This document shows positions 868 to 64,000 of a stretch of DNA of 64,000 nt, piece after piece. Below the pieces are notes generated by a model. That model saw only the letters and a list, made by a program, of their open reading frames with translations, made no database searches and was not told the DNA's origin. How positions within the stretch are numbered: the stretch's first letter is position 1; every line of letters starts with the position of its first letter. The DNA is taken from the NCBI GenBank assembly GCA_965199495.1, contig CBDASK010000003.1, positions 1,280,001 through 1,344,000 on the forward strand, written 5' to 3'. This stretch comes from Abditibacterium sp. GTDB lineage: Bacteria; Armatimonadota; Abditibacteriia; Abditibacteriales; Abditibacteriaceae. The position numbers and the translations under genes are program-made.

Positions 868-1608
868 TTATTCCATTACCAGCCCGCCGTCAACGTTAAA
901 CGTCTGTCCGGTGATATAACGCGCCCGCGCGCTCGCCAGAAATAACGCCAATTCCGCCACATCGTCGGCTTCGCCCAAGCAACCCAGCGGAATCTGTTCC
1001 AACAACGCCGCTTTGTTTTCCTCGCCTAACTCCGCCGTCATATCGGTCGCGATAAATCCCGGCGCAATCGCGTTGCAAGTAATGGCCCGCGAACCCAATT
1101 CTTTGGCAATACTTTTAGTAAAACCAATCAAACCCGCCTTGGACGCCGCGTAATTGGCCTGCCCCGCGTTGCCCATCTGCCCAATCACCGAAGTGATATT
1201 GATGATGCGCCCATAATCCGCCTTGAGCATCGGACGCGCCGCCGCTTTGGTGCAATAAAACGCGCCGCTCAAATTCACGTCAATTACGCTTTGCCACTGT
1301 TCGAGTTTCATGCGCAAGAGCAAACCATCGGCGTTGATGCCCGCGTTGTTGACCAAAATGTTCAAGCCGCCCATTTCTTTGACGGCGTTTTTGAAGCCCT
1401 CTTCCACCGCGCCCGCATCAGCCACGTCGAGGGCAAGCGGGAGAGCGCGACGGCCCAACGCACGAATTTCGTCGGCCAATTCGACCGGTTCACTGCGAGC
1501 GATTAACACGCAATCGGCGCCGTTCTGCGCCAATTTGAGCGCGATGGCACGACCAATGCCGCGCCGCGCGCCGGTGATAAATGCGATTTTATTTTCGAGT
1601 TCGAGCAT
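868..1608 (-). CDS. fabG: 3-oxoacyl-ACP reductase
   Basis: TGARRGIG, NNAG and YAASK SDR motifs; fab cluster context. Confidence 0.96.
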   Translation of the reverse strand: MLELENKIAFITGARRGIGRAIALKLAQNGADCVLIARSEPVELADEIRALGRRALPLALDVADAGAVEEGFKNAVKEMGGLNILVNNAGINADGLLLRMKLEQWQSVIDVNLSGAFYCTKAAARPMLKADYGRIINITSVIGQMGNAGQANYAASKAGLIGFTKSIAKELGSRAITCNAIAPGFIATDMTAELGEENKAALLEQIPLGCLGEADDVAELALFLASARARYITGQTFNVDGGLVME

Positions 1609-1618
1609 AATTATTGAA

Positions 1619-1674
1619 GTAGGGGCGGGAAAACCCCGCCCAAAACATAACGGGCGGGAAGACCCCGCCCCTAC
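1619..1674. repeat. GTAG-type REP doublet (REPIN-like)
   Basis: GTAGGGGCGGGAAAACCCCGCCC ... GGGCGGGAAGACCCCGCCCCTAC: two inverted hairpin units with GTAG/CTAC feet. Confidence 0.85.
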
Positions 1675-1686
1675 GGTTTACAGGTC

Positions 1687-2562
1687 TCACAGATTCCGCG
1701 TTTCCACCGATTTATCAATGCGCTTGACCAAGCCCGTCAGCACTTTGCCCGGCCCCAATTCGATGAATTCGTCGGCGCCCGCCTCAATCATATTGGCGAT
1801 AGTTTCGCTCCAACGCACCGCGCCGGTCATCTGGCCTTTGAGCGCCGCCTTCGCCGTGGCTGCATCGTGGGTGCCGCTCGCTGTCGTGTTTTGAAATATT
1901 GGAATGCGCGCTTCCTCAAACGGCGCGGCGTTAATCAACTCGCTCATTTCGGCGCCCGCCTCGGCCATTAGCGGCGAATGAAAGGCGCCCGAAACCGGCA
2001 ATTTCACCGCCATTTTCGCGCCCTGATTTTTCGCCTCTGTCATCGCCAAATCAATGGCGGCGGGCGCGCCCGAAACCACGACTTGGCCGGGACTATTATA
2101 ATTCGCCGCCACAATTGCGCCCTGCGCGCTCGCGCTTTGTAAAACGCCTTCGAGTTTATCGTCGGCCAACCCGATTAAAGCCGCCATCGCGCCCGCAGGC
2201 GCCTGCGCCATCAATTCGGCGCGGCGCTTGACCAACTTGAGCGCCGCTTCAAAACTCAGCGCGCCCGCAGCCACGAGCGCCGTATATTCGCCCAGCGAAT
2301 GGCCCGCCGTCATTGCGGCGTCGAATTCCGATTTATGCGCCTCGAAATGCAACACGCCGATAGTTAAAAGCGCGGGTTGCGCGTGCAGTGTGTTTTTCAG
2401 TTCGTCGTCGGGGCCGTCGAAACAGAGGGCGCGTAAATCGTAGCCCAACACATCATTGGCGGTTTGCCAGACGGCGTCCGCGCCCCCGAACGCCGCCGAA
2501 ATTTCGCGGCCCATGCCGACAATTTGGCTGCCCTGTCCGGGGAAAAGTATTGCTGTTGACAT
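1687..2562 (-). CDS. fabD: Malonyl-CoA:ACP transacylase
   Basis: FPGQGSQ, GHSLGEY and VSGAFHS motifs. Confidence 0.97.
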   Translation of the reverse strand: MSTAILFPGQGSQIVGMGREISAAFGGADAVWQTANDVLGYDLRALCFDGPDDELKNTLHAQPALLTIGVLHFEAHKSEFDAAMTAGHSLGEYTALVAAGALSFEAALKLVKRRAELMAQAPAGAMAALIGLADDKLEGVLQSASAQGAIVAANYNSPGQVVVSGAPAAIDLAMTEAKNQGAKMAVKLPVSGAFHSPLMAEAGAEMSELINAAPFEEARIPIFQNTTASGTHDAATAKAALKGQMTGAVRWSETIANMIEAGADEFIELGPGKVLTGLVKRIDKSVETRNL

Positions 2563-2578
2563 AAATTTATTAATTTTG

Positions 2579-3326: not shown

Positions 3327-3501
3327 CCCAGCGTTGTCATTCTGAGCGCGGGCGCCCTTTGGGCAGCAGGGACGAGCGAAGTCGAAGAATCCACTACTCA
3401 CGATGAGTCGAAAGCGAGGCTATCACGCAACTTTTGGATTCTTCGACTTCGCTCGTCCCTGCGGCCCAAAGGGCGCCCGCGCTCAGAATGACAACGCTGG
3501 G
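3327..3501. repeat. GTCATTCTGAGCG...GAAGAATC-family inverted repeat element
   Basis: About 65-bp arms, nearly perfect inverted (cccagcgttgtcattctgagcg ... cgctcagaatgacaacgctggg). Confidence 0.88.
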
Positions 3502-12964: not shown

Positions 12965-13020
12965 AACCCAGAATAAAAGCGGCGCGCGCCTTTACCAGCC
13001 ACGCCGCCCTCAGCCTGAGT

Positions 13021-15279: not shown

Positions 15280-15957
15280 ATGATATATTTCGTTCAAAAA
15301 TCCTTTTCTATCCAGCAAAAAAGAAGAGGATTTACCCTTGTCGAAATTTTGGTGGTGTTGGCGATAATAATGTCACTCGCAGCATTGCTCTTCCCCGTTT
15401 TCGCGCGGGTGCGCGAGAATGGACGCAAAGCCTCTTGCCAGAGCAACCTCAAACAATTGGCTTTGTCCGTGCAAGAATATGTTGCCGATCATGGACATCG
15501 TTATCCCAGCATAAATGGCTTCAGAGAGGCTTTGTCACCTTACGTCAAAAGCGAAGAAATCTATTATTGTCCGTCGCAAAAACAGCATCGCCCCGATAAA
15601 GATACTTATCAATATAACTCTTTCCGCTTGAATCGGGCGATTGCCAATCCGGAACCTTTTCCAAGTATTCCCACGACTCTGATCGGGCGCAACGAAACCT
15701 CTGTGCCCGAAGTCACAACGATTTGGCTGCAATCGGATATGGGTCACGATTGGAATGATAATGATGGTTTTGTTGCAGTGCGTTCTTCCTGCACCGACGA
15801 AATCGGCAGAATAGGGATATTGGGAGTGAATCTGCATTCTGGTGGCGGAAACTACTCCTTTTTGGATGGGCACGTCAAGTGGCTTACACCGCAAGCTCTG
15901 GGTGAAACCGAATGTAGAAATCCGGTTTATGACCCCAACAACGCTCCCGCCGATTAA
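15280..15957 (+). CDS. Prepilin-type N-terminal cleavage/methylation (DUF1559) protein with C-terminal H-X9-DG motif
   Basis: RRGFTLVEILVV, FPVFARVRENGRKASCQSNLKQL and HSGGGNYSFLDGHVKW. Confidence 0.88.
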   Translation: MIYFVQKSFSIQQKRRGFTLVEILVVLAIIMSLAALLFPVFARVRENGRKASCQSNLKQLALSVQEYVADHGHRYPSINGFREALSPYVKSEEIYYCPSQKQHRPDKDTYQYNSFRLNRAIANPEPFPSIPTTLIGRNETSVPEVTTIWLQSDMGHDWNDNDGFVAVRSSCTDEIGRIGILGVNLHSGGGNYSFLDGHVKWLTPQALGETECRNPVYDPNNAPAD

Positions 15958-23678: not shown

Positions 23679-24923
23679 ATGGACTTACTCCGATTCTCCA
23701 CTTGCGGCAGCGTGGACGATGGCAAATCAACCTTGATTGGCCGTCTGCTTTACGACTCCAAGAACATTTTTGAAGACCAACTCGAAGCCGTCGAAAAATC
23801 TTCGACCAAACGCGGCGACGATTACGTCAACCTCGCGCTTCTCACGGACGGTTTGAAAGAAGAGCGCGAACAGGGCATTACGATTGATGTGGCTTATCGC
23901 TACTTCGCCACGCCCAATCGCAAATTCATTATCGCCGATACGCCCGGTCATATTCAATATACGCGCAACATGGTAACGGGCGCTTCTACGTCACAGTTGG
24001 CCATCGTTTTAATTGATGCCCGCAAGAGCGTTATCGAACAAACCAAACGCCATTCTTATATCGTTAATTTGCTGCGCATCCAACACGTCGTTTTGGCGGT
24101 TAATAAAATGGATTTGGTGGATTATTCGCAGGAACGTTTCGACGAAATCGTCGCCGATTACCGCGCGTTCGCCGAACCGTTGGGCAACCTGCACGACATC
24201 ACCGCGATTCCTCTGGCCGCGCTGCACGGCGATAACGTCGTCGAACCATCGGAAAATTTGAGTTGGTATAACGGCCCAACGTTGCTTCAGCACTTGGAAA
24301 CCGTCGAAATCAGCGACACCATCAACCACGAAGACGGGCGTTTTCCGGTTCAATGGGTGATTCGTCCGATGAGCGAGAATTATCACGATTTTCGTGGCTA
24401 CGCCGGGCGCGTGGCTGGCGGCACGTTCCGGCCCGGCGATGAAGTCACGGTGTTGCCGAGCGGACTTTCCACGCGTGTCAAAACGATTCACACGGCGGAA
24501 GGCGACTTGGACGAAGCGTTCGCACCGCTCTCGGTTTCGCTGACATTGGAAGACGAAATTGATATTTCGCGCGGCGACATGATTGTGCCGTCGGATAACT
24601 TGCCGCAGCACGCCAACGAGTTTCACGCGATGATCTGTTGGTTCTCGCCCAAACATTTAATTCCCAAAGGCAAGTATTTTCTTCGTCATACGACAAGAGA
24701 TGTGCAAGCGATGATCGCGGGTATCGATTATAAAGTCGATATTAATACTTTGGAAGAAGAAGATAACGATGCGAAATTTACTTTAAACGACATCGGTAAA
24801 ATTCGCGTGCGCACCGCCGACCCGCTCTTTTTCGATTCGTATGCGCGCAATCGTAATACGGGCAGTTTTATCTTGATTGATGCAGGCACGAATGAAACCG
24901 TCGCGGCAGGCATGATCTGTTGA
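23679..24923 (+). CDS. cysN: Sulfate adenylyltransferase subunit 1 (GTPase)
   Basis: GSVDDGKST, EREQGITIDVAYRYF, DTPGH and NKMD motifs; no fused APS kinase. Confidence 0.97.
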   Translation: MDLLRFSTCGSVDDGKSTLIGRLLYDSKNIFEDQLEAVEKSSTKRGDDYVNLALLTDGLKEEREQGITIDVAYRYFATPNRKFIIADTPGHIQYTRNMVTGASTSQLAIVLIDARKSVIEQTKRHSYIVNLLRIQHVVLAVNKMDLVDYSQERFDEIVADYRAFAEPLGNLHDITAIPLAALHGDNVVEPSENLSWYNGPTLLQHLETVEISDTINHEDGRFPVQWVIRPMSENYHDFRGYAGRVAGGTFRPGDEVTVLPSGLSTRVKTIHTAEGDLDEAFAPLSVSLTLEDEIDISRGDMIVPSDNLPQHANEFHAMICWFSPKHLIPKGKYFLRHTTRDVQAMIAGIDYKVDINTLEEEDNDAKFTLNDIGKIRVRTADPLFFDSYARNRNTGSFILIDAGTNETVAAGMIC

Positions 24924-24924
24924 T

Positions 24925-25068: not shown

Positions 25069-25070
25069 TT

Positions 25071-25853: not shown

Positions 25854-25864
25854 AGGCGCAAAGT

Positions 25865-26035: not shown

Positions 26036-27250
26036 TTGCCAAACTCTCCCAACTTCGTGAAGACTTCTTCCTCTCAAAAATTCGGTGGCTTGCTCATCAT
26101 TGACCGGTTCGTCGGCAAACTGGTCGTCGGCGCGACTTTGGGCGCGGCGGGTTGGTTTCTCGGCATTTTGCTGATCGCCGTGGTAATTACCGGCATCCAA
26201 AAGCTCGTCACCAACTCGTTGAGCGGCGGCGAAATGTTGATTTTCGTGGGATTGCAACTGCCGCGTATGATCGTGTTCGCCCTGCCGATGGCGATATTGT
26301 TCGGCAGCGTGCAAGCGTTCGCGGCGTTATCACGGCAGGGCGAAGCCGTGGCTCTGGGCGCGGCGGGCGTGAGTCTGGTGCGCATGATGCGCGCGCCGCT
26401 CATCTGGGCGGCGATTTTGACGTTCGTCAGCTTTGCCCTCAGCGAATGGCTGGTGCCGCCACTCGAACGCTCCAAAGATTCGATTCTGGTTTCGCATTTG
26501 TCCACCAGCATCGGTCAGGGCGGCTTTCGCTATCAAGACCCGGCAGCCGACGAAGATTTGCCGCTCAAAACTCTGGTGCAGGCCCGCAGCTTCGATTTCA
26601 AAGCGTTGACTTTGAACCAGCCACGCGTGCAATTGTTCGATGACGATCAAAAATTAAAAACGCAAATTGTGGCGCAATCGGCCAAGTGGACGGGCAAATT
26701 ATGGGTTTTATCGCAGGGCGTATTAACGACTTTCCCACCCGCCAAAGACGGCGAAATCTCGCTGCCCAAAGCCACCGAATTTGGCACAACGAGCGTCGAA
26801 TTGCCCGCGCCCGAATTTCTTAATCGCAGCGCCAACAGCCTTTCGATGCGCCTGTCTCACGGCGATTTCCTGATGGTTTCGCTGCCCGAAACTTTGGCCT
26901 ATCGCCGCGCCATCGCCGCGCAGTTGCCGCTCGCCCAAACCAAAGCCGAACGCGCGCGGACGGAAAAACTCGTCAAAAGCGCGACTTTCGGCATCCACGA
27001 CAAAATCGCCGCGCCTTTAATTTGTTTCGCCTTCGCCCTCGTCGGTTTGCCACTGGGTCTGCATTCGCCGCGCACCGGAGGCGGCGCGCTGGGAATGTCG
27101 TTCGTGGTTTTGGTCGTCTATTATGTGATCTGGACGTGGTGTTCGACGCTGGGTCGCCCCGGCGCCGTCAATCCGGTCGCGATGGCCTACGCGCCGTTAT
27201 TGTTAATTTCGGCGATTGGCGCGTGGCTGGTGTGGTTGCGCAACCGTTGA
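26036..27250 (+). CDS. LptF/LptG family LPS export permease
   Basis: IIDRFV, LPMAILFGS, LSRQGEAVALGAAGVS and KIAAPLICFAFALVGLPLG; start uncertain. Confidence 0.85.
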   Translation: MPNSPNFVKTSSSQKFGGLLIIDRFVGKLVVGATLGAAGWFLGILLIAVVITGIQKLVTNSLSGGEMLIFVGLQLPRMIVFALPMAILFGSVQAFAALSRQGEAVALGAAGVSLVRMMRAPLIWAAILTFVSFALSEWLVPPLERSKDSILVSHLSTSIGQGGFRYQDPAADEDLPLKTLVQARSFDFKALTLNQPRVQLFDDDQKLKTQIVAQSAKWTGKLWVLSQGVLTTFPPAKDGEISLPKATEFGTTSVELPAPEFLNRSANSLSMRLSHGDFLMVSLPETLAYRRAIAAQLPLAQTKAERARTEKLVKSATFGIHDKIAAPLICFAFALVGLPLGLHSPRTGGGALGMSFVVLVVYYVIWTWCSTLGRPGAVNPVAMAYAPLLLISAIGAWLVWLRNR

Positions 27251-27493: not shown

Positions 27494-29347
27494 ATGACCG
27501 TTTCAACCTCACGCGATTCTTCCGTTTCGACGCCCCATTTTTGGCGCCGGACGCCTCTCGTGTTGGCGATAATTGTAGGCGTCTCGCTATTTCTGTTGTT
27601 GTGGAAATTGGGCAGTTACGGTTTGATTGACGTGGACGAAGGCCGCTATGCCGAAGTGCCGCGCGAGATGTTCATATCGGGTGATTGGCTGACGCCGCGC
27701 CTGAATTACCTCAACTTTTTCGACAAACCGCCCTTGCTTTACTGGGGCATCGCGCTCTCTTACGCCATTTTCGGCGTGACTGAATTCGCCGCGCGCTTGG
27801 TTCCAGCGCTGTGGGCTTTGCTTGGCATCGTCGCGACTTACGCGTTGGGCCGCCGCATGTTTGGGCCGCGCGCCGGATTTTTAAGCGCGATTATTCTACT
27901 CACCTCGCTGATGTGGACGGTGATGGCGCGCGTGGTTTTGACCGATATGGCGGTATCGTCGTTGGTCTTTTGCGCCATCGCCTTTTGGTGGCTGGCCCAA
28001 ACAGCAGCCACGGCGAAGGAACGTACGCGCTGGCTGGCATTATTTTGGATTTCTCTCGGATTAGGAATGCTCGCCAAAGGCCCCGTTGCGCCGGTTTTGT
28101 GCGGCGGCGCGATTTTCGTTTATCTGCTGGTTTGCAAACGCTGGCGCGACTTGCGCCAGATGGGCTGGATTTGGGGCATTCCGTTGTTAATTGCGGTCGC
28201 GGCGCCGTGGTATATCGCGATTGCGGCGCGTCATCCCGAATATAATAACGCGTTTTGGTATGAGCAAAATTTTGGGCGTTTCACCGGTGCTATCAGCAAA
28301 GTTGACCATTCGCACGGGCCGCTATTTCTGCTGCAATTTCTGCCGGTCATTTTCTTTCCGTGGTCGGTCTTCGCCCTCCCCACTTTATTTTACGGCTGGA
28401 AAAAACTGTGGCCGGTTCGCACGCAAAATCAGCGCGCCGCCGTTTATTTGCTGGGCACCGTCGCGTTCGTGCTACTGTTTTTCTCGACCTCGGAAAGTAA
28501 GCTCATCACCTACATTTTGCCGGTCGTGCCGCCGCTCGCGATTCTAATGGCGGCCTACTTCGACCGCTTATTGAGCGCGCCAAAACTCGGAGTATTTATC
28601 AACGTTTGCGGCGGCATTTTCGCGGCGATTCTCATCATCGGTGGCGCCGTGGCTTGGTTTATCGCGCCCACCAAACTCGATGTTAAAGGCGCCAGCGATA
28701 CTATCAGCCACGTCGCCGCGCTCGCGCTGATGATTTGGGGTTTGGCGCTCGCTTTCGCGTTGTGGAAACGCAGCGCGCCCACGTTATTGGGCGCGATGGC
28801 GGGCGGTTACGCGCTCTGTTTCATGGTCGGCATGGCGTTGGTTTCGCAAATACTACCCGGCATCACGACCAAACCGTTGATTGCGCAAATCAAACCGGGC
28901 ATTGGGCCGGACACCGAAATTTTAGCCATCGGATTTTCGCAGAGTTTGCCGTTTTATACCGGCAAACGCATGCGCGTGCTGGGCACGCCCGACGAACTGG
29001 CGCACGCCAAAAAGTATCTTTCGCCCACCGAGCGGAAGCGTTGGTTTTTTCAAATCGCGCCCGATTTGCGGCGCTTGATGCTGAGCGACAAACCCGTGTA
29101 TTGCGTCATTCGGCGCAATAATTTTTTGGGTTACGAACAACGCGCGGCGCTCGCATTAACTCAAACAGAAGGCCAAATTTTCGAGATCGCGAACAATGAC
29201 CGTTTCGTGATTCTTGGAAACGCTGCTGCCACGCAATTGACGCCGCCCGCGCCGGGCGTAGCGGGCTTTGACCAAATGCGTGAGGCTGCCGAGAAACTCG
29301 ATGCGCGCGGGCGCGAACAGCTTTTAGAAAAGGCGAAACAGGATTAA
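27494..29347 (+). CDS. ArnT-family (GT39/GT83) glycosyltransferase
   Basis: DVDEGRYAEVPREM, DKPPLLYW, LAKGPVA and SKLITYILP. Confidence 0.9.
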   Translation: MTVSTSRDSSVSTPHFWRRTPLVLAIIVGVSLFLLLWKLGSYGLIDVDEGRYAEVPREMFISGDWLTPRLNYLNFFDKPPLLYWGIALSYAIFGVTEFAARLVPALWALLGIVATYALGRRMFGPRAGFLSAIILLTSLMWTVMARVVLTDMAVSSLVFCAIAFWWLAQTAATAKERTRWLALFWISLGLGMLAKGPVAPVLCGGAIFVYLLVCKRWRDLRQMGWIWGIPLLIAVAAPWYIAIAARHPEYNNAFWYEQNFGRFTGAISKVDHSHGPLFLLQFLPVIFFPWSVFALPTLFYGWKKLWPVRTQNQRAAVYLLGTVAFVLLFFSTSESKLITYILPVVPPLAILMAAYFDRLLSAPKLGVFINVCGGIFAAILIIGGAVAWFIAPTKLDVKGASDTISHVAALALMIWGLALAFALWKRSAPTLLGAMAGGYALCFMVGMALVSQILPGITTKPLIAQIKPGIGPDTEILAIGFSQSLPFYTGKRMRVLGTPDELAHAKKYLSPTERKRWFFQIAPDLRRLMLSDKPVYCVIRRNNFLGYEQRAALALTQTEGQIFEIANNDRFVILGNAAATQLTPPAPGVAGFDQMREAAEKLDARGREQLLEKAKQD

Positions 29348-32659: not shown

Positions 32660-34477
32660 ATGCCCCGCAAAACCAAGCCGCAACCGCAAAACGACATCGC
32701 CGCGCGCCAATTCGCGTTGGGTCAGCAACTGCTGAGCGAAAGCCCGCTCTTTAATCCGCTGTTGTTGCACGCCGAAATCGTGCGGCAACACAACGGCATC
32801 GTGCCACGCGATGGCTGGGCGCTCGTGCGGCGCGATGGAACGATTTTCGTTCATCCGACGCGGCGCGCCGAACCGCAGGAGTGGCAGTGGATTTTGGGGC
32901 ATTGCTTGCTGCACTTGGCGTTCGAGCATTTTCGCGAGGACAACTCGCCCGCGTGGAACGCGGCGTGCGATGCGGTTGTCGCGCGCTTTTTGGCCGATAC
33001 CAAAACCGGCGCGCCGCCGCTCGAATTGACGCAAATCCTGCCGCCATTGCCTTCGCGCGACGAACACCAGCTGGCGCGGCAGTTCGAGCGCGACGGCATT
33101 CCCGCTGCTTTTGGCAACATCGGAACGGCGGGCATCGGCGCGCTCGATATGCAATGGAGCGAGGCGCCGCGAAGGGATTGGTATCGCGGCGCGGCGCTCG
33201 ATTGGGCGCAGATTTTCGCCAACGGACTCAGCCACGCCGTCACTCATGCCGTGCGCGTGGCTGCGGGTGTCGCTGGCGAATTTGACCGCGACAATGGCAA
33301 ACAGACCCGCGCGCAAAAGGCGCGCAGTTGGTTTATCGCGTCCTATCCGCTTTTGGGCGCCCTCGCGGCGGCGTTCGAGTTGATTGAAGACAGGACGATT
33401 TGCGCGCAACAAGAAATCTTGGTCGCCGCGATTAACGTGCGGCGACGCATCATTTACATGAACCCGGCGGCGGGCATGAGCGAGGGCCAGTGCCGTTTCG
33501 TGATGGCGCACGAGTTCCTGCACGCGGCCCTGCGCCACGACGCAAGACGCGGCGGGCGCGACGCTTATCTCTGGAATATTTCGTGCGATTACGTTATCAA
33601 TGATTGGTTGCTCGAAATGGGCATCGGCGATGCGCCGACGTTTGGCATGTTGCACGATCCGGCGCTGCGCGGCCAGAGCGCCGAGGCGATTTACGATTTG
33701 GTGACCAAAGATTTGCGGCGTTATCGCAAGTTGCAGACGATGCGCGGCTTTGGCAAATCGGATATTCTGGGCGACGACACGCCGTGGTGGAAAATCGGCG
33801 AGGGCATGACGCTCGATGCGTGGTATCGCGGCGCACTTTGCCAAGGTTTGGCTTACCACGAAGGCGAAGGGCGCGGTTTGTTGCCCGCCGGGTTAGTGCA
33901 GGAAATTCGCGCTTTGGAAATGCCGGTCGTGCCGTGGGATGTCGAGTTGGCGCAGTGGTTTGATGCGCACTTCTCGCCACTCGAAAAGCGGCGTTCGTAT
34001 GCGCGACTCAGCCGCCGCCAGAGTTCGGCGCCCGACATCGTGATGCCCGCTTTTGTCACGCCCGAAGAAGCGCATTATTCGCGCACATTTGGCGTGGTTT
34101 TGGACACGTCGGGTTCGATGCCGCGCGAACTTTTGGGCAAAGCATTGGGCACGATTGCGTCGTATGCCATCGCGCACGAAGTGGCGGCGGTGCGCGTGGT
34201 TTTCTGCGACGCCAGCGCCTACGACGAGGGTTGGATGGCGCCCGAAGACATCGCCGGGAACGTCGTGATTCGCGGGCGCGGCGGCACGATTTTGCAGCCC
34301 GCCATTGATTTATTGGAAAGCGCGCCCGATTTTCCCAACAATGGCCCGATTTTGATTTTGACCGACGCGCAGTGCGAAAGCGATTTAATCGTGCATCGCG
34401 ATCACGCGTTCGTCGCGCCGAGGGGCGCGCGCTTTCCGTTTCGCCCGCGCGGGCCGGTGTTCGAGTTATCGGGATAA
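32660..34477 (+). CDS. vWA-like domain protein with metallopeptidase domain(s) (DUF2201-like)
   Basis: AHEFLHAALRH (HExxH), WNISCDYVIN, VVLDTSGSM (MIDAS), RGRGGT and ILTD; ATG at 32660. Confidence 0.85.
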   Translation: MPRKTKPQPQNDIAARQFALGQQLLSESPLFNPLLLHAEIVRQHNGIVPRDGWALVRRDGTIFVHPTRRAEPQEWQWILGHCLLHLAFEHFREDNSPAWNAACDAVVARFLADTKTGAPPLELTQILPPLPSRDEHQLARQFERDGIPAAFGNIGTAGIGALDMQWSEAPRRDWYRGAALDWAQIFANGLSHAVTHAVRVAAGVAGEFDRDNGKQTRAQKARSWFIASYPLLGALAAAFELIEDRTICAQQEILVAAINVRRRIIYMNPAAGMSEGQCRFVMAHEFLHAALRHDARRGGRDAYLWNISCDYVINDWLLEMGIGDAPTFGMLHDPALRGQSAEAIYDLVTKDLRRYRKLQTMRGFGKSDILGDDTPWWKIGEGMTLDAWYRGALCQGLAYHEGEGRGLLPAGLVQEIRALEMPVVPWDVELAQWFDAHFSPLEKRRSYARLSRRQSSAPDIVMPAFVTPEEAHYSRTFGVVLDTSGSMPRELLGKALGTIASYAIAHEVAAVRVVFCDASAYDEGWMAPEDIAGNVVIRGRGGTILQPAIDLLESAPDFPNNGPILILTDAQCESDLIVHRDHAFVAPRGARFPFRPRGPVFELSG

Positions 34478-34919: not shown

Positions 34920-36509
34920 CTAATCTTCGTGGCCGACCAGAACTTTCATCGCTTGCTGCGGCGACAGATAACCGGCCAATAACTTGGCGCGCGCGTCGTC
35001 GCGCAGACTGGAAAAGCCTTCTTCGCGGGCGGCGCGGCGCAGTTCGTCGCTGTCTTTTTGCGCCATGATCGCGCGGCGCAGTTTCGGCCCGATTTCGAGC
35101 ATTTCGACAATCGCCACGCGGCCCTTGGTGCCCGTGCCGCCGCAATGTTCGCAACCAACGCCTTTCATCAATTGCGTGCCGACTGGCAAATCGAAAAAGT
35201 TCAGCCACTCTTCCATTTCGGGGTCGTCGGCGGGAATCGGTTGGCGACAAAAACGGCAACTCAGGCGGGCCAATCGTTGGGCCAAAACGCCTTCGAGCGC
35301 CGAGGCGATGAGGTAGGCCGGAATGCCCATGTCCTGCAAGCGCGTGATGGCCGCGACCGCCGAGTTGGTGTGTAGCGTTGCCAACAGCAAATGGCCGGTC
35401 AGGGCGGCGCGCACAGCCACGTCGGCGGTTTCTTGATCGCGAATTTCGCCGACCAGAATCGTATCGGGGTCTTGGCGCAAAATCGAACGCAACGCGCGCG
35501 CGAAAGTCAGGCCGATTTCGGAATGCACGCTGGTTTGTGTCACGCCGCGCAGTTCGTATTCGACCGGGTCTTCGACGGTGATGACGTTTTTGGTCTCGTC
35601 GCGCGAAGCCGCTAAGGCCGCGTAAAGCGTGGTGGTTTTGCCCGAACCGGTCGGGCCGGTCACCAAAATCATGCCGTGCGAACGCGTCAGCATCGAGTAA
35701 AAGCGCTTTTGATCTTTGGGCGAAAATCCCAGTTGGCCCAAATCGGTGACGAGCGACGAGTGATCCAACAAACGCATCACGATTTTTTCGCCGTGCAGGT
35801 TGGGCAACGTCGAGACGCGAAAATCGAAAGTGCGCGTGCCGTATTTGGCGCGAAAACGTCCGTCCTGGGGCAATCGCTGTTCGGTGATGTCAATGTTGGC
35901 CAGCACTTTGAAGCGCGAAATCAGCGGCAAACTCAAGTCGAGCGGCAAAATGCGGCGCGATTGCAGCAGCCCGTCAATGCGATAGCGCGGCAACAATCCT
36001 TCGGGCGTCGGTTCGAGGTGCAAGTCGGAAGCGCCATCGGCGATGGCCGCTTTGAGCATCTCGTTGGCGAAACGCACGACGGGCGCCAGCGCCGGGTCTT
36101 CCTCTTCGATTTCGGCGCCCTGAACGACGAAATTGCCTTCGATAGCGGCGACCTTGTTGGCGCCCAATCCGACTTCGCTGGCGGCGGGCGCGGCGGGCAT
36201 CGCCCGTTCGACGGGCGCTGGCGTGGCCGTCTCTACAACTCTGGGCGGGCGGGCCTGAAGCGGCTGCGATGCGCGCGGCGGCGCTTGATTTTGCCCGTTG
36301 GTTTGTCCGTTACCGGGCGCCGTGGCTGCATCGAGGGCGTTGGGGTCGAAGCGCAAAATTTCGCCGGGCGCGAGCGCGCCTAAACGCAACATCGTGCGCG
36401 AAAGCGATTCGCCTGTTAAGCGTTGCGCGGCGAAATCTTTGAGTTGATCGCGCGTCACCAAACCCGATCCATGCACGGCTCTTGCAAATTGTTCGTCAGT
36501 TATCATCAA
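34920..36509 (-). CDS. GspE/PilB family secretion/pilus assembly ATPase
   Basis: ASDLHLEP, RLPQDGR, TGPTGSGKTT, EDPVE, LRQDPD, TGHL and the tetra-Cys zinc site. Confidence 0.93.
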   Translation of the reverse strand: MMITDEQFARAVHGSGLVTRDQLKDFAAQRLTGESLSRTMLRLGALAPGEILRFDPNALDAATAPGNGQTNGQNQAPPRASQPLQARPPRVVETATPAPVERAMPAAPAASEVGLGANKVAAIEGNFVVQGAEIEEEDPALAPVVRFANEMLKAAIADGASDLHLEPTPEGLLPRYRIDGLLQSRRILPLDLSLPLISRFKVLANIDITEQRLPQDGRFRAKYGTRTFDFRVSTLPNLHGEKIVMRLLDHSSLVTDLGQLGFSPKDQKRFYSMLTRSHGMILVTGPTGSGKTTTLYAALAASRDETKNVITVEDPVEYELRGVTQTSVHSEIGLTFARALRSILRQDPDTILVGEIRDQETADVAVRAALTGHLLLATLHTNSAVAAITRLQDMGIPAYLIASALEGVLAQRLARLSCRFCRQPIPADDPEMEEWLNFFDLPVGTQLMKGVGCEHCGGTGTKGRVAIVEMLEIGPKLRRAIMAQKDSDELRRAAREEGFSSLRDDARAKLLAGYLSPQQAMKVLVGHED

Positions 36510-38794: not shown

Positions 38795-39640
38795 TTATGG
38801 CTTGGGAACGGGCGTAGGCGTGGGAGCGGTGGGGAGAGCCGCTATAGGTCTGCCGCAAGAATCATTTGCTTCTGCAGGAACGGCTGGAGGCTGAAGGCTG
38901 GAACCGGTGCCACTGCCAAACGCTCGATCATGGAAGCGAGGAGTGCCCGTCATACGAGTTTTGAAATCTGCTGGCACATCAGCGGACACCATGAACTTGA
39001 CGTGCCCATCGGCATAAAGCAAATTGCCACCGCCATTGTGACCATCAAATAACGCGTCGGTAGAACCTCCATCACTGGTGGCCCAGAAATACCCATCATT
39101 GATCGTTTTGCCCTCATCCACCAATAAAACGATGTCGCCCGGACTGGTAATTCGAGTGGCAGCAATGCCCGCGAGCGCACAGTTCATCGAATAACTCAGC
39201 TTTTTGCTGTTGGCATCGACCGCGCTGGGACAAACGTAAATTCCAGCCGATTTGGTATAGGCTGCTAACGCGCCTATTGAGTTCTGAGGATAGGCTTCAT
39301 GGTCAGGAACTGTCGCGAAAGTAGTGGGATTTGCCAATCCCATTTCAGTATCAGTGAAGTTTTTGGGAGTTCCTCCTGTTCCGCCAGTAACCCAATGCCC
39401 GCCAGAAGCCCATTTCTGATATTGGCCCGCCTGCGGATATTTGCCGCGCGAATCCTGTGTGTATAGCAAAAACGCGGTGCCCAACTGTTTCATGTTCGAC
39501 AAACATGCGGTTTTGCGACCGTTTTCGCGAGCGCGGCTAAACACGGGAAAGAGAATCGCGCTCAAAATGCCGATGATGGCGATGACGACCAAAATTTCGA
39601 CCAGGGTAAAAGCGCGACGCGGCGCGGGGAAATGTTTCAT
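38795..39640 (-). CDS. Prepilin-type N-terminal cleavage/methylation (DUF1559) protein with H-X9-DG motif
   Basis: RRAFTLVEILVVIAII, FPVFSRARENGRKTACLSNMKQLG, SYSMN and HNGGGNLLYADGHVKF. Confidence 0.9.
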   Translation of the reverse strand: MKHFPAPRRAFTLVEILVVIAIIGILSAILFPVFSRARENGRKTACLSNMKQLGTAFLLYTQDSRGKYPQAGQYQKWASGGHWVTGGTGGTPKNFTDTEMGLANPTTFATVPDHEAYPQNSIGALAAYTKSAGIYVCPSAVDANSKKLSYSMNCALAGIAATRITSPGDIVLLVDEGKTINDGYFWATSDGGSTDALFDGHNGGGNLLYADGHVKFMVSADVPADFKTRMTGTPRFHDRAFGSGTGSSLQPPAVPAEANDSCGRPIAALPTAPTPTPVPKP

Positions 39641-42011: not shown

Positions 42012-42016
42012 ATTTG

Positions 42017-42203: not shown

Positions 42204-42212
42204 GAATTCCCA

Positions 42213-45493: not shown

Positions 45494-45501
45494 GGGGTGG
45501 A

Positions 45502-45654: not shown

Positions 45655-46083
45655 ATTTTCCAATCGCGCTTTCGCCGCGCGATATTTCTCTAACCGTTGC
45701 AACTCATATTCGGTCGGGTTCGCCAATCGTTTCATATCCATATTATCCGCCAAATCGGCGAGTTTGACTTTTATCGCGATTGGATTGCGCATCACGCGTT
45801 CGATGGCTTTGTTGTAATCGGCCTTGCCTTCGTCGTCTTTGGTCAGATGTTCGACAGCGACGATGACGTTTTCGGGAAAGCCCTGCGTTTCCAACAGTTC
45901 GCGCGTGACGCCGCAATCTTCCATTGTGTCGTGCAGCAATGCGGCCATTTGATGTTCGAGCGGCACGTCCAAACCCAGATTATTCATCACGCGGAGCGGA
46001 TGCAAAATGTAAGGTCGCCCGGCTTTGTCGGTTTGGCCGCGATGCACGGCGGTCGCAAATAAAATCGTGTCTTCGAGAGTCAT
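45649..46083 (-). CDS. Stand-alone HD-domain protein (small alarmone hydrolase/Mesh1-like)
   Basis: HRGQTDKAGRPYILHPLRV, AALLHDTMED and KVKLADLADN. Confidence 0.82.
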   Translation of the reverse strand: MTLEDTILFATAVHRGQTDKAGRPYILHPLRVMNNLGLDVPLEHQMAALLHDTMEDCGVTRELLETQGFPENVIVAVEHLTKDDEGKADYNKAIERVMRNPIAIKVKLADLADNMDMKRLANPTEYELQRLEKYRAAKARLENV

Positions 46084-47118: not shown

Positions 47119-47284
47119 GAGTTGTGCAATTGGGCTGTCATTTTGAGCGAAGTGAGGCACGAACGAAGTCGAAGAATCCATAACATTTCGATGAGGTGAC
47201 AGTGTAGTTAGAACGCGACCGATGGATTCTTCGACTTCGTTCGTGCCTCACTTCGCTCAGAATGACAGCCCAATTACGCAACTC
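47119..47284. mobile_element. MITE-like shell with GTCATTTTGAGCG...GAAGAATC palindrome
   Basis: gagttgtgcaattgggctgtcattttgagcgaagtgaggcacgaacgaagtcgaagaatcca ... tggattcttcgacttcgttcgtgcctcacttcgctcagaatgacagcccaattacgcaactc. Confidence 0.8.
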
Positions 47285-56036: not shown

Positions 56037-59000
56037 ATGACAACACCCCTTCGCCGCGCGCTTTTCGCGCTCGCTCTGAGCTTTGCTGTGCCGCTCGCGC
56101 CAACCTCGGTTTGGGCTACGCCAGCGCAAACGGCGCCCGCAACCGTGACTTTGCGCGCGAGGGTTTCCGATGCGGCGGGCCAGGCGGTTGTAGGCGCCGA
56201 TGTCGTTGTTGTGCAGCGCGACGACGACTATAAACCCAAAATCACCGCGTTCAAGACCGATGCGCAAGGGCGCTTTGAAATCGCCGGAGTGAAACCGAAA
56301 TTCGGCGTCGAGGCGTTTGTTTACCTCGCTGGTTACGCCTTGCAACGCGAGTTTGTTGTGCCCGATAGCGACAATGGTATCACGCTCAAAAAGGGCGAAT
56401 CGGCGAGCGGCAAAGTCGTTGATGCCGATGGCAAACCGGTGGCGGGCGCGCGCGTAAAAATGACGCGGTTGGTTTTGTCTGCCGAGGATGCGGGAGATTT
56501 TCGGTTTCGTTATGTGCAGATCGATGCGCTGGAAAATTCGGTTTTGACGCGCGCGCTCGAAACGAAAACCGATGCCAACGGCGTCTGGGAATTGGCCGAT
56601 TTGCCGATTGGTTCGCAGGGCACATTTCAATTGGACGATCCGCGTTTCGCGCGCGATGAGAAGTTCGGATCGCCGGGCGAAAACAAACAAATCGTGCCCG
56701 ATTTGAAAGCAACGCCGGGCGCGAACTTGAAGGGCCGCGTCGTCGCGCCCGATGGAAAACCGGTCGCGGGCGCGCAAATTAACGTGAATGTTGGTGAGAA
56801 ACAGAGCAGCTATGCCGAAACGGTGACGGCGAAAGACGGCACTTACTCGCTGCAAAGTTTGCCGCCGGGCGACGCGGCGATCAAAGTCAAATCGCCCGAT
56901 TCGCCCCTCGCGCCGACGAGCATCAAGGGCGTGGCTGTTGTGGCGGGCGGGACAGCCACGGCGCCCGACATCAAGTTGGGCGCTGGCGTTTTGCTGACCG
57001 GAAAAATCATAGATAAAGACAGCAAAGCGCCGGTCGCGGGCGCGCGCGTGATGATACAGGGCGATTTCGGCGATGTGCCCACGACAGTTAGCGGCAAAGA
57101 CGGCACCTATCAAGCGCGCGTGCCGCAGGGCAAAATCCGATTTTACATTTACTCATATCCCCGCGGGTATGTGCAAGAGGATTTTGCCGACGCCAATTCC
57201 AACATCACGGCAGCCAGCACCAAGGCTCCCGATTTCACGATTGCGCGCGGCCTGACGCTGACTGGAAAGGCGCTCGATGAAACCGGCGCGCCCGCCGCGA
57301 AAGCGACGATTATCGCGGGCAGCGATTGGGACGGCGCGCAAAGCAGCGTTGACGATGCGGGAAACTGGACGATTGAAGGCGTTGACAACAAGCCAAACGG
57401 ACGCAATGGCAAAGTGCGCTTGAAAACCGATGGCGATTGGCAAATCGTCGGCGACGGTTTAGTGGCGGCGCGCGAGGGCGATAAAATCGCGTTGACATTG
57501 CGACGCATCGAGTGTCAAGACGTGACGCTGCGCATCGTTACGCCCGAAGGCGAACCGGTTGAGGGCGCCAAAGTGCGTTTCGATATTATGTTCGACCCGA
57601 CGAACCATTCGACGCGCTTTGAAACCGCCGTTTCCAACGCGCGCGGCGAAGTGACGGTCAAGCGTTTGCGGCCCGACGAAAGCGTCGAAGTCAAGCCCGA
57701 AAAAGTGGGTTATGCGCTGCAAAAAGCGGGCGTTATCACGATGATCGAAGCTAACAAAACGCGCGCGACCGATGCGATTATGACGCCGAAAAACGGCGTT
57801 TTGCGCGGGCGCGTCGTGGACGCGGACGGCGTGGCTGTTGTGGGCGCGCGCATCGCGGTGTTGTGGCCGGGCGATTTGCGCGATGCGAAAACGTTGGCGC
57901 AAAGCGGCGCGGATGGGAAGTTTGAACTGAATAATCTGCGCGCGGGCGAACTGCTCGTCGGCGCGGCGCACGGGCGCGATTTCGGGCAAGTCAAAGCGCA
58001 GACGGGCGGCGAAATCGAGATCAAGCTGGCAGCAGCCACGCCGCAACCGTTGCCTCAAGATCGCGCGTTGGCGCGGCAGGTTTTGGAGCGTTGGTTCGCC
58101 GATTCCAAGCCAGCGGCGGGCGCGACGTTAGCGAATTTCGCGGCCAACATCGCGAACACCAGTTCGCAGGACGACGGAAATTTCGCGACTCGCAGCACGG
58201 ACGGTCAATTGTGGTTCGAGCGCGAGCAGACGCCGGAACTTGTGCAAGCGCAGCAACAGCAAGCGATTCAAACGGCGCGCGCCAAAATAGAGGCCGCCCA
58301 AAATCTCGAAGCGCGCGATGGCGCTCTACTCGATTTGGCGACTCTGCTTTTGCAAAACGGCGATAAAGAAGGCGCACGCGCGGCCTACGAAAGAGCGGAG
58401 CCTGATCTTATCAACGCGAGCAAAACTAACGCAGCCGATGTGAGTTCGCTCTATCGTTACGCGCAACTCGCCGGAATTACCAGCGCTATAGAACATCGTA
58501 ACGCCAGTTTTTGGATCGAGATATTGGATCGCGCGTTGCCAGAAAAGCCCACCGATGAAATGATGTTCGGCATCGGCAGCTATATGAAAACCTTCGCCGA
58601 GAATGACATTGATGGCGCGCTCGATTTCATGGAAACGTTGGCGCCCATTGCTCAAATTCGCGCTTCCGAAGACGTGATTCCCATCGTCGCCAAGCGTGAT
58701 TTGCCGCGCGCGCAGGAGTTGCTAACCAAAATGGATGCGCTGTTCGCGCGCGGAGATATTCCAATCGAGCCAGATCGCAACGACGGGATGTATCGCCCGA
58801 CGCCCGCGCGTTCGCTGGACGTGGCGCGCGCCGCGATTATCCGCGCGCTTTTGCCGACCGATGCGCGCGCGGCTTATGCGCAATCGCTGAAAATCACCGA
58901 TGAAAACGGCTACGGCTTGGCGAGTCTGCAAACCGAAACCGCGTTGCGTTTGCCCGTTGCCGAAGTGTTGCCGATTTTGCGCGCGCAGTTCGCGCAGGCG

Positions 59001-59486: not shown

Positions 59487-59615
59487 CCAGCGAATGAATT
59501 CGCGGCAACGTAGAGCAAAGTCCGCCTACGCGGACTGTAGGCGAACTCTTCGGAGTTGTAATTTCAGTCCGCGTAGGCGGACTTTGCTCTACGTTGCCGC
59601 GAATTCATTCGCTGG
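59487..59615. repeat. 51-bp perfect inverted repeat (AGTCCGCCTACGCGGACT-type REP-like doublet)
   Basis: ccagcgaatgaattcgcggcaacgtagagcaaagtccgcctacgcggactg and its exact reverse complement, between convergent genes. Confidence 0.9.
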
Positions 59616-61450: not shown

Positions 61451-61632
61451 TATTAATAAAAGTAAGTGGAGGGTAATACCTTTGTTAATTGTCGCATTAT
61501 AAATAAGCCGCTAACCCCAATCAAAGGTGAATAATTTTTCGCTTTCCACTTTTGCATTTGCGGTCTTCGCCAGAAGCGTGCTTTTTCACGCGACTTCTGG
61601 TAAATTTACAGAGCAGCAATTGCCGACTGTGA

Positions 61633-61756
61633 CTTCTATGTTATGGGAATTACGCAGTTGGAAATTTTCACGACTGAACGTGGAATGGGAAAACGCAAAA
61701 ACGGTTCCCGTTCACGCTCAGAAATTTCCAATTGCGTAATTCCCATAACATAGAAG
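61633..61756. mobile_element. MITE-like element with GGGAATTACGCA termini
   Basis: cttctatgttatgggaattacgcagttggaaattt ... aaatttccaattgcgtaattcccataacatagaag. Confidence 0.72.
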
Positions 61757-61925
61757 ATTACTCGCAAAGTATTTTAAGATCTGAGACATCTAACGATAGT
61801 TTGGGCCCCTCAATTTGCGTGGCCAAAACTGACATCATCATGTCGTTTGAACACGAAACTATTTGCGGCGTCTTTTCTCAGTTCTGCTTCCCCCTTTTGG
61901 TTTCTGGGGCGACGGAGGTTCATTA

Positions 61926-63203
61926 ATGCGTATCTGTGTGTTGACCGAATACTTTCACCCTGACAATACTGGCGGCACCGGGCCGGTCATGTCGAGTTTG
62001 ATCAGACATTTAAAAGACAATTATGACGGAATAGAGATTGATGTTATTACCAGTCTCAATTTATTTCGTGGCACATCGGACGCGCCCCTGATCCGCGAAA
62101 ACTGGAATGGCGTTTCGATTCGTCGCATTCCCTCGCCTCCGGCGGCCAAGAATTCGACGCGCCGTCGTCTGCTCTCCAATCTCTTATTTACTAACGCCGC
62201 GCTCCGCACCTTATTGTTGAGCCGCAACAAATATGATCTGATTTTAGTCGTGACGGCGCCGCCGACATTGCCGATGGCCGCGCGGGTTTATCGCGCGTTA
62301 ACCGGCACGCCCTACGTTTATCTGGTTCACGATCTGTTCCTCGATATGGCGTTGGCAATGAATTTGGTGAAGGACAAAGGACGCAGGACGCGCACCATGC
62401 ACAGCGTGCAACGCAAGTGGTTCGATAAAGCCGCACGCATTGTCGTTTTGGGGCGCTGTATGCGCGATTACGTGAGCAATCATTATCAGGTGAGCGCGGA
62501 AAAAATGAAAATCATTCCGATTCCCGCCAATATTCAGCAAATTCGCGTGACGAACCATCAAACGTGTTTCCGCGAAAAGAATAATTTGGATGGTTTCGTG
62601 GTGTTATACGCGGGCAATTTCGCGCGTTATCAGGATTTCGACACCCTGCTCGATGCCGCCGCCAATTTGCGAGATCGCAGCGATATTACCTTTGTTTTTG
62701 TGGGCGATGGTGCGCGGCGAGAACATATCGAAGCGCGCGTCGCCCACGAAAATTTGACCAATGTGCGCCTGTTACCGTTCGTGCCCGCATCCGAACTCAA
62801 CGATATGTTGGCCTCGGCCAGCGTCTCTCTGGTGAGTCTGGAAAAAGAGATCGCTGGTTTGGCGGTGCCTTCCAAATTCTATAACATCATGGCATCGGGG
62901 CGCCCCACGGTGGCCGTTGTCAATGACAAAAGCGAGGTCGGTTATATCATCAAGGAAGTCCAATGTGGCGTGCAAGTCGATCCCGAAGATAGCGCCTTTT
63001 TGGAACAGGCGCTACGACAACTGGCCGACAATCCAGAGCAGGTGCGCCAAATGGGACTTAATGCACGCGCGGTTTGCGAAGAACGCTTTTCGCGTGAACA
63101 CATCGGGCACCAATTTTATCAACTCTTTGAAGAAGTCATTAGCGAACGCGCGCGCGCCAAAAAATCGCCCAGGAAACAGCAAGTCAAACCGCAGACGATG
63201 TAA
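61926..63203 (+). CDS. GT4 glycosyltransferase (WcaI-like)
   Basis: TEYFHPD, VHDLFLD, YAGNF, FVGDG and VPSKFYNIMASGRP; ATG at 61926 preceded by GGAGG. Confidence 0.9.
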   Translation: MRICVLTEYFHPDNTGGTGPVMSSLIRHLKDNYDGIEIDVITSLNLFRGTSDAPLIRENWNGVSIRRIPSPPAAKNSTRRRLLSNLLFTNAALRTLLLSRNKYDLILVVTAPPTLPMAARVYRALTGTPYVYLVHDLFLDMALAMNLVKDKGRRTRTMHSVQRKWFDKAARIVVLGRCMRDYVSNHYQVSAEKMKIIPIPANIQQIRVTNHQTCFREKNNLDGFVVLYAGNFARYQDFDTLLDAAANLRDRSDITFVFVGDGARREHIEARVAHENLTNVRLLPFVPASELNDMLASASVSLVSLEKEIAGLAVPSKFYNIMASGRPTVAVVNDKSEVGYIIKEVQCGVQVDPEDSAFLEQALRQLADNPEQVRQMGLNARAVCEERFSREHIGHQFYQLFEEVISERARAKKSPRKQQVKPQTM

Positions 63204-63237
63204 GAATTCATTTGATTCTTACCATCGCAGTTTGAAC

Positions 63238-64000
63238 TCAAGGTTTTTTGCGGGCTAAATTGCGTTCGATAACGGCCAACAAACTGCGCGCGGCGCCGCC
63301 GATTTCAAAGCGCGCGTTGAAGCAAGCCACGGCGTCTGCACGCATGCGCTGCATTTCTTCAGAAGAGGTCGCCAGCCACGATTCCAGATTGGCGAGCGTG
63401 CCTTCGCGCGTATCGGGCGCCACGAAGCCGACTTTATCGGCGACGATTTCGCGCCAGATGTTGACTTTGTCTGAAATCAAAACCGGCACACCGCACGCCA
63501 GAGCTTCGGCCACCACGATGCCAAAGTTTTCCTGATGCGAGGGCAGAGCGAAAACCTCGGCCACGCGAAAGGCGCCCCATTTCAAGTCGCCCTGCAACAT
63601 GCCCGTCCAGGTGATGCGCTCGGCCACACCCAACTTTTGCGCCTGATTTTGCAGTTCGGCCTGCAAACCCTGCTGATCGGGGCCGGCCATCACCAGATGC
63701 AAATTCGGATCGCGATTCGCGATTTGCGCGAAGGCTTCAATGAGCAAATCGGCGCCTTTTTTGACGTGAATCCGTGAGAGGAATAGCACAACGCGCTTGT
63801 CACGCAATTGCGGAAATTGCTTCAGAAACAGTTCGCGTTGTGCCTCGCCGTGGCTCGGTGGCGCGGCGGTGCCATAATTGACGACGGTTTCGCGAGCGCG
63901 ATATAAGCCAAACGATTGGCGCGCCAGCACGCGCTCTTCTTCTGAGGTGAAGCAAACGGCGCGCGCATCGCGCAAAACGCGATATTCGCCCCACGGCCAA
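63238..64000 (-). CDS. GT4 glycosyltransferase (3' part; starts beyond window end)
   Basis: FLSRIHVKKG, AGPD and PSHQENFGIVVAEALACG. Confidence 0.9.
   Translation of the reverse strand, partial: WPWGEYRVLRDARAVCFTSEEERVLARQSFGLYRARETVVNYGTAAPPSHGEAQRELFLKQFPQLRDKRVVLFLSRIHVKKGADLLIEAFAQIANRDPNLHLVMAGPDQQGLQAELQNQAQKLGVAERITWTGMLQGDLKWGAFRVAEVFALPSHQENFGIVVAEALACGVPVLISDKVNIWREIVADKVGFVAPDTREGTLANLESWLATSSEEMQRMRADAVACFNARFEIGGAARSLLAVIERNLARKKP

Follow-up and report, generated by a model that had tools for sequence, protein, structure and literature searches.

The word in the window and in its genome

The stretch of DNA studied here (the window) comprises 64,000 nucleotides of the chromosome of an Abditibacterium sp. 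(GCA_965199495.1, contig CBDASK010000003.1, positions 1,280,001 to 1,344,000), and its genes are interspersed with copies of a non-palindromic octamer, CAGCCACG. This word is selected as DNA and fills the resident chromosomal genes of a single clade. Demand for the word acts locally, over about 1 kb, can be saturated and is tallied per strand, and the word probably works like a DNA uptake sequence. Genomes are cited by number, G000 being the window's own and G001, G004, G011, G017 and so on those of relatives.

The window holds 54 exact copies (31 on the plus and 23 on the minus strand), against a mean of 2.14 and a maximum of 7 in 100 dinucleotide shuffles. A preliminary description of the window had put the strands at about 31 and about 23 copies, with about 3 expected; its counts prove exact, and all the positions it listed hold copies. 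The copies are distributed as follows:

1419..63380, both strands: 54 dispersed copies of CAGCCACG, 49 in called genes and 5 non-coding or at a gene edge (pattern search and gene calls)
12996..13003, plus strand: non-coding copy; further non-coding copies at 18731, 22605, 38622 and 42262
24410..24417, minus strand: copy read R-V-A-G in cysN; intact in G011, with one mismatch in G004 and at least three in the non-carrier G006
26618..26625, plus strand: copy read Q-P-R in an LptF/LptG-family gene; the G004 ortholog is without it (E-P-R)
28705..28712, plus strand: copy read S-H-V in an ArnT-like gene; unbroken in the G004 ortholog
33229..33263, both strands: close inverted pair within a gene
34594-34613 and 56930-56960: further close inverted pairs; all three pairs are coding and none lies at a gene end

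By our gene calls the reading frames first proposed are right (QPR at 26618, SHV at 28705, AWL at 27222, VA at 29786, TAT at 44125), and the copies at 12996, 22605 and 38622, described as intergenic, are indeed non-coding.

The G000 assembly consists of three contigs, a 4.72-Mb chromosome and two of 25 kb and 65 kb, on which we called 3,974 genes (84% coding). It contains 3,091 copies of the word, about one per 1,500 bases: 1,558 forward and 1,525 reverse on the chromosome (653/Mb, strand-balanced), and 2 and 6 on the small contigs (81-93/Mb). CAGCCACG is the top 8-mer of the genome by z-score, and its observed-to-expected ratio (O/E) at Markov orders 2 to 6 is 12.3, 13.1, 7.1, 2.2 and 1.1. 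The preliminary description had proposed to abandon the signal if the ratio was about 1-2 at orders 5-6. Such values were found, but the threshold is invalid, because at these orders the model contains the word's own 6- and 7-mers, which is also why the ratio nears 1. The enrichment is confirmed as real.

Replichores were delimited by an origin at dnaA and a terminus placed by non-coding GC skew, an assignment validated by the FtsK-orienting polar sequence (KOPS) GGGCAGGG, our positive control, which fills the KOPS role in G000 and stands at 201:24 leading to lagging (89%). The corresponding figure for CAGCCACG is 1,499:1,584 (48.6% leading, p 0.13), in line with the earlier view of it as unpolarised and distinct from Chi, KOPS and the cyanobacterial highly iterated palindrome (HIP1). 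Identity with Chi or KOPS is ruled out by the missing polarity and by the absence of any detected AddAB or RecB in G000, G004 and G011 (AddA query and PDDEXK_1 family search, the RecC family lying outside the search), and identity with HIP1 by the fact that CAGCCACG is not a palindrome. The AddA query recovered the gene in 10/10 congeners without CAGCCACG and in 0/3 carriers, with short UvrD-like matches only in the three carriers and 15 other genomes (in G019, one weak partial match). G000 contains 16 copies of HIP1 (GCGATCGC), 7 of the DNA uptake sequence (DUS) of Neisseriaceae (GCCGTCTGAA), 23 of the uptake signal sequence (USS) of Pasteurellaceae (AAGTGCGGT) and 25 of ACAAGCGGT, so CAGCCACG is no DUS or USS dialect. 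An apparent polarised repeat turned out to be one clustered regularly interspaced short palindromic repeat (CRISPR) array of 131 repeats at about 2.766-2.777 Mb of G000:C3. Within the 28 genomes of the order, the addAB pair (e.g. L144:3273-9908, L139:4066-10545) is confined to ten of this genus, and PDDEXK_1 in it is found in the AddB-like partner only. CGATCG is strongly avoided in G000 and in other samples of the family (L096-L135; L323-L342) and present in G004 coding DNA, which suggests a lost restriction or methylation constraint in G004.

Selection on DNA

Called genes contain 2,842 of the 3,091 copies (92%). When synonymous codons were re-dealt with the proteins kept (five runs), only 227-264 copies arose (O/E about 11.6), and under this null the word is enriched in each of the six frames, as anticipated by the preliminary description, which had selection acting on DNA and not on protein. 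The proteome bears the imprint: the 11 tripeptides in greatest excess in G000 include VAA, AVA, AAT, TAT and ATA, an effect described for USS and DUS (PMC2817400). The word consists of a strict core with graded flanks, AGCCAC lying inside the preferred context (AG)CAGCCACG-S-CG. Single changes at positions 1, 8, 10 and 11 of CAGCCACGNCG remain enriched, so that the many one-mismatch variants noted earlier are borne out at positions 1 and 8; most changes inside AGCCAC are at about chance level. The 235 non-coding copies of G000 have the same flank profile as the coding ones. Recognition of a hairpin at G000 sites was rejected, as the flanks show no complementarity or covariation (best z 3.0 among 144 position pairs).

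Conservation was assessed on 205 gene pairs between G000 and G011, from a 408-kb sample. Sites were intact in 114/172 cases, against a background of 39% for all 8-mers, and 339/381 four-fold positions within sites were kept where 256.6 were expected; the rare GCA codon was kept in 17/17 cases within sites and in 28% elsewhere. The synonymous-site conservation that had been proposed as a check is thus present in this pair of genomes. CAGCCACG is depleted in low-GC3 genes (139-283/Mb vs about 700) and in low-GC islands. Together with the small contigs, this amounts to a scarcity in mobile and recently acquired DNA; the like is known for DUS (PMC2397512).

Spacing of copies

A new feature of this word is the spacing of its copies: up to about 1.3 kb, a copy keeps away from others of its own orientation and is indifferent to those of the opposite one. 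At 20-600 bp we observed 182 same-orientation pairs in G000 where 584 were expected; the O/E is 0.10-0.44 over this range, climbs to 0.6-0.8 at distances up to 1.2 kb and settles at 1 past about 1.4 kb, with a fitted reach of 0.9-1.0 kb. Opposite-orientation pairs have an O/E of about 1, with an excess only below 20 bp, and five control words showed no same-strand deficit. The pattern (same:opposite) is found inside single genes (163:488), for pairs spanning two genes, whether these share a strand (83:119) or not (28:54), and among non-coding copies (37:82). Weaker variants follow it too, with an O/E of 0.33-0.42 less than 500 bp from a strong site of their own orientation and of 1.3-1.7 when more than 1 kb away; with respect to strong sites of the opposite orientation it is about 1. 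G011 agrees (3 same-orientation pairs vs 25.1 expected). The floor of the same-orientation O/E, 0.06-0.2, is close to the neutral background of the word, which suggests a lost benefit rather than harm from direct repeats. A codon or peptide artefact is ruled out by the protein-preserving null, the silent-site conservation, the flanks of non-coding copies and this spacing across genes.

Outer-membrane uptake is blind to USS orientation (PMC1939737), and we examined the spacing of USS because this led us to expect evidence against uptake. The class-wide search for comparators returned genomes of about 1 Mb without USS; the comparator was instead drawn from 43 metagenome contig stretches (L172-L243, short ones excluded), of which 31 with at least 350 USS/Mb and at least 4 sites were kept. 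In successive distance classes to 400 bp, same-orientation counts were 0, 2 and 14 where 4.6, 16.2 and 36.4 were expected. With close inverted pairs (<40 bp) removed, the range 40-400 bp held 11 same-orientation pairs against 32.6 expected and 29 opposite pairs against 32.0. Pasteurellaceae-type USS on these contigs thus avoid same-orientation neighbours out to about 400 bp, and the spacing signature is common to a proven uptake sequence. In print, same-orientation avoidance of USS is described for the under-10-nt case (PMC1852404); we found no report of the longer range in the available portions of the literature.

Carriers and other words in the family

Besides G000, the carriers of CAGCCACG are G004 (3,503 copies) and G011 (2,676), that is, 3/13 genomes of the genus, 3/28 of the order and 3/301 of the phylum sample. 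On partial RpoB (in G005, a 236-residue fragment) they form one clade, with about 98% mutual identity and 76-81% identity to nine of the ten other congeners. For a protein of the window, the closest named relatives belong to Abditibacteriaceae (55-60% identity).

Other words occur in relatives. G017, of another genus (L408, L409, L412), has 2,567 copies of AGTACGGTCG, found in that genome only among the 28. They form perfect hairpins outside matched genes, many with A/T tails, together with single coding copies, and 1/76 of the plus-strand gaps listed is below 600 bp, against 13.9 expected. This word appears, from its genomic behaviour, to be a close analogue of DUS and USS. In 44 kb of G001 (L144, L131-L135, L087) there are 26 copies of ATTCCACA, mostly as ATTCCACAAAAAATGAA with an A-run tail; some are paired, others single, and addAB is among the places that hold them. 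A 74-kb sample of its sister genome G008 has none. At least three mutually unrelated words thus occur in the Abditibacteriaceae. A word-finding test that ranked the G000 word first in 30/30 windows of 20 kb gave no comparable word in samples (5-120 kb) of G016 and 13 other groups of family loci. Of 44 unrelated loci, 43 likewise gave none; the remaining one scored 16.1. The highest score among the 44 belongs to the Elusimicrobia locus L006, with 10 copies of AGTTCCTG in 21 kb where 0.8 are expected.

The repeats of G004

At least 1,365 of the 3,503 copies of G004 lie in an arm of an intergenic inverted repeat of the repetitive extragenic palindromic (REP) type, the commonest arm being ACACCAGCCACGTCCTAC. 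The same arm has 5 matches in G000 and 1 in G011, so that word copies within intergenic hairpins of shared ancestry, as in REP elements and their paired form (REPINs), are a subset of those of G004 and do not characterize G000 or G011. The G004 arm resembles a REP that flanks a REP-associated tyrosine transposase (RAYT), and the G000 counterpart of this REP is without the word; the more economical history would be that the word came first and the repeat captured it. One RAYT gene of G000 has flanking repeats that contain GCAGCCAC.

These repeats make a natural experiment, which we followed over 560 kb with 72 inverted pairs (inverted pairs only). With rising distance from the nearest pair, single coding copies of G004 number 0, 83, 287, 329, 597 and 547 per Mb, i.e. 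0-287/Mb within 1 kb of repeats vs about 550-600/Mb farther away, while the aligned orthologous DNA of G000 is flat (590-910/Mb). Only 10/104 coding sites fall less than 1 kb from word-bearing inverted repeats, in 26.6% of the DNA (p 1.5e-5). G000 sites were kept in G004 in 6/53 cases within 1 kb of a repeat and in 41/133 beyond (p 0.005). The single coding copies of G004 favour the flanks of the arm, a dialect of their own.

At least 4 RAYT-like Y1 genes are present in G000, three with obvious flanking repeats. The window itself contains further repeats:

2574-2707, 24924-25075, 25860-26006, 27245-27414, 32351-32653 and 45484-45657: intergenic inverted repeats of CACAGAG-type heptamers, beginning AGCCAC
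3327-3501, 31134-31207, 36637-36709, 42014-42206, 47119-47284 and 59487-59615: further REP-like inverted repeat families

Competence machinery and candidate readers

G000 encodes type IV pilus genes, secretins, ComEA, ComEC, DprA and ComM, and these competence genes look intact; the ComEA and ComEC that the preliminary description advised looking for are thus there. It had also mentioned a PilB/GspE ATPase and pilin-like proteins in the window. They are not evidence for uptake: the main pilus locus lies elsewhere, and this locus, ComEC, DprA and secretins are equally present in the tested relatives without the word. G000 has at least 14 prepilin genes in all. As context only, the window has:

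About 15370-15957, plus strand: H-X9-DG-type prepilin gene
34920..36476, minus strand: PilB/GspE-type ATPase gene, paralogue of the pilB of the main pilus locus
38795..39640, minus strand: another H-X9-DG-type prepilin gene

DUS are bound by ComP, with dialects (PMC3630211, PMC2397512), and ComN/PpdA is the predicted USS receptor (PMC12616744). Six pilin-like proteins of the G000 pilus locus are N_methyl/DUF1559 or have no Pfam match (no genome-wide search for ComP or PpdA was made). A tandem pair of PilX-like pilins of about 1,300 residues, without Pfam match, lies at G000:C3:872853-880963. The tandem occurs in G000, G004, G011 and G017, and also in G031 and G032; seven congeners have a single copy in the main pilus locus, and one copy was found in each of G016 and G013. 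The copies vary widely (53-88%), and a model (predicted local distance difference test, pLDDT, 79.8) gave no clear fold match. We regard this pilin as a weak candidate for the reader.

Another candidate is a protein of 1,421 residues (G000:C3:4111365-4115630) that combines a Dna2-like iron-sulfur nuclease, with four conserved cysteines, and a superfamily 1B helicase; its model (pLDDT 89.9) has Dna2 as predicted best fold match. It is present in 18/401 phylum genomes and 5/28 order genomes, the latter being the three carriers, G017 and G016. In G011 the copy is broken, residues 1-679 being missing and the rest in two frames. Relatives occur in Chloroflexus and Roseiflexaceae; no viral relative was found. 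An MmeI-like type IIL gene directly downstream of rpoC (G000:C3:4314457-4317351) was rejected as reader, as it was not found in G004 (92% complete) or G011 (87%). Also downstream of rpoC is a 526-residue protein with a weak match to the von Willebrand factor A domain of Ro60 (G000:C3:4306745-4308325), and a word-poor island contains an Eco57I-type methyltransferase and a large helicase cluster (G000:C3 1177807-1191175).

Proposed mechanism and alternatives

By analogy, we think it probable that CAGCCACG acts in the manner of DNA uptake sequences and owes its spread to transformation-linked drive, without being DUS or USS itself. The carriers, with pilus, secretin, ComEA, ComEC, DprA and ComM, would be naturally competent, and a direction-sensitive step of uptake or of incoming-strand processing would favour fragments with AGCCAC in its preferred context. 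Because of this bias, a new copy arising by point mutation would be over-transmitted via homologous recombination among kin, except where a same-orientation copy already lay within the fragment's length. Copies would build up at tolerant codons until each strand was tiled. Word-bearing repeats would hitch-hike on the same bias, relieving neighbouring genes of the word. The likeliest place for the reader would be a fast-evolving pilus-tip protein, for which Thermus ComZ offers a precedent as DNA receptor (PMC6561018), or ComEC or a cytoplasmic step.

Several observations weigh against this proposal. The pilus locus, secretins, ComEC and DprA are equally present in tested relatives without the word, and no candidate reader tracks the word cleanly across genomes. 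The idea that the word is uptake-like, already in the preliminary description, is upheld in that it behaves genomically like DUS and USS, and fails on their intergenic enrichment and intrinsic-terminator pairs: non-coding DNA of G000 has 323 copies/Mb, half the genic 704/Mb, and only 1/18 non-coding close inverted pairs has a T/A tail. The ortholog conservation sought from the outset holds against G011, but G000 sites are no better kept in G004 than background (55/212; 27.9%). Saturation near the G004 repeats fits any local reader, not uptake alone. The USS sample (534 kb, 405 sites) is made of partial contigs chosen by their USS pattern, and without removal of terminator pairs opposite USS pairs are also somewhat depleted (34 vs 54). 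Uptake as published does not see orientation, and so gives no account of the strand-wise spacing, even in USS.

Directional reading would directly account for the redundancy of same-orientation copies if CAGCCACG were an unpolarised Chi-like signal read by the rare Dna2-like enzyme. The enzyme would travel along one strand until a correctly oriented word made it cease cleavage or yield to RecA; in this lineage lacking AddAB, tagged DNA would thereby be spared during the repair of breaks or following gene transfer. The complementary distribution of AddA and the word in the genus agrees with this, as do the presence of so uncommon an enzyme in all three carriers and G017, whose word came to light when the two other holders in the order were tested, and the confident model with its predicted fold match. 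The reach of 0.9-1.0 kb resembles the 900-bp processivity of the Dna2-like Bad (PMC7430649), maybe by coincidence. Yet G011 keeps its 2,676 sites with a broken copy, the holder G016 has no word in 34 kb, and five further holders have neither the G017 word nor CAGCCACG; AddA also gave no full-length match in 15 other family and order genomes, all of them without CAGCCACG, and USS share the spacing without needing the enzyme. We consider this reading unlikely, lowered as it is by G001, which has its own word together with AddAB and in which the enzyme gene was not found (86% complete). A bolder construction, which we hold to be doubtful, is that the family repeatedly evolves unrelated uptake-like words, at least three so far, that all such words, USS among them, are read at a direction-sensitive step by which the two strands are tiled separately, and that in this clade the reader could be this single-chain helicase-nuclease, a Chi-type self-recognition of a kind not described that would replace AddAB.

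The word might otherwise be recognized by a HUH single-strand nuclease, coding copies being targets or relics of REP activity. The many G004 copies in REP-type arms, the flanks that coding copies share with them, the GCAGCCAC-containing repeats around a G000 RAYT gene and the inverted pairs formed by the G017 and G001 words speak for it. We judge it quite unlikely, as G000 and G011 have only 5 and 1 arms yet the highest numbers of coding copies, G000 sites lack hairpin covariation, coding copies are depleted, not enriched, near repeats, and the arm in G004 seems to be a variant of a REP that in G000 is without the word, which fits capture by the repeat. Were the word bound by a housekeeping protein, for instance one for chromosome organisation or repriming, and kept by ordinary selection, the even tiling of resident DNA would be explained, and earlier authors read USS spacing in this way (cited in PMC1939737). 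We find this improbable: the replichore bias expected for lagging-strand priming or segregation signals is lacking, and an essential reader would hardly allow a single family to change so fast between unrelated words. We find it very improbable that the word is methylated on one strand (type IIL/IIG-like) to tell the strands apart in mismatch repair, or acts as a HIP1-like ratchet, sites then being required on both strands separately. Methylation of one strand only, at a site that is no palindrome, would lead one to expect each strand to be tiled by itself over about 1 kb; the adenine in the last position but one of AGCCAC is typical of MmeI-family sites; and G000 encodes both an MmeI-like enzyme and MutS. 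Against this, the enzyme was not found in G004 or G011, other methyltransferase candidates come from a motif regex in G000, and methyltransferase sites do not resemble a graded 11-13 base preference with tolerant first and eighth bases.

DNA uptake guided by a sequence tag is established for two proteobacterial families, both host-associated. If our proposal of uptake-linked drive is right, this would be a third system, in free-living Armatimonadota, arisen more than once in one family; self-tags would then evolve readily, close relatives with and without the word would help to find the reader, and supplying DNA with the word could open these little-studied organisms to transformation. Strand-wise spacing offers a cheap genomic test for uptake-like words, and its presence in USS raises the question of which uptake step sees orientation. 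The G004 repeats indicate that demand for the word is local and saturable, as molecular-drive models centrally predict. We found no paper on exact CAGCCACG and no report of such a signal in this lineage, although supplements of oligomer surveys (e.g. PMC5217627) could list it.

Comparison with known systems

HIP1 of cyanobacteria is likewise a hyper-abundant octamer present in all frames and conserved at silent sites (PMC5861425), but it is a palindrome with internal methylation sites, which CAGCCACG is not. Chi, read by RecBCD or AddAB, shares with CAGCCACG the directional, non-palindromic octamer; it differs by its replichore polarity and by a reader not found in the carriers. GTAG-type REP and REPIN elements go with RAYT, and the G004 word is the arm of such a repeat, whereas in G000 and G011 the word stands alone inside genes, without a hairpin.

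DUS and USS are the closest likeness. Like them, CAGCCACG is short and non-palindromic, occurs about once per 1-1.5 kb, is strand-balanced and unpolarised, is read in all frames with excess tripeptides, is conserved as DNA (vs G011; no overall excess vs G004) and coexists with competence machinery. It falls outside them on sequence and on terminator use. With USS it shares a density of about 650-760/Mb, equal use of both strands, a location mostly in genes, the reshaping of tripeptides, a strict inner core with softer flanks and, as measured here, the avoidance of same-orientation neighbours. It differs in its unrelated sequence and phylum, in a reach of about 1.3 kb vs about 0.4 kb and, in G000, in being without terminator use, although the G017 word does form terminator-like pairs. 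Genes contain only about 35% of DUS (PMC3630211, PMC2397512) vs 92% of CAGCCACG, and DUS dialects share a core, which the three words of the Abditibacteriaceae do not. With DUS, CAGCCACG has in common its density, restriction to a clade, conservation in the core genome, rarity in recently acquired DNA and, in G004, a dialect of the flanks.

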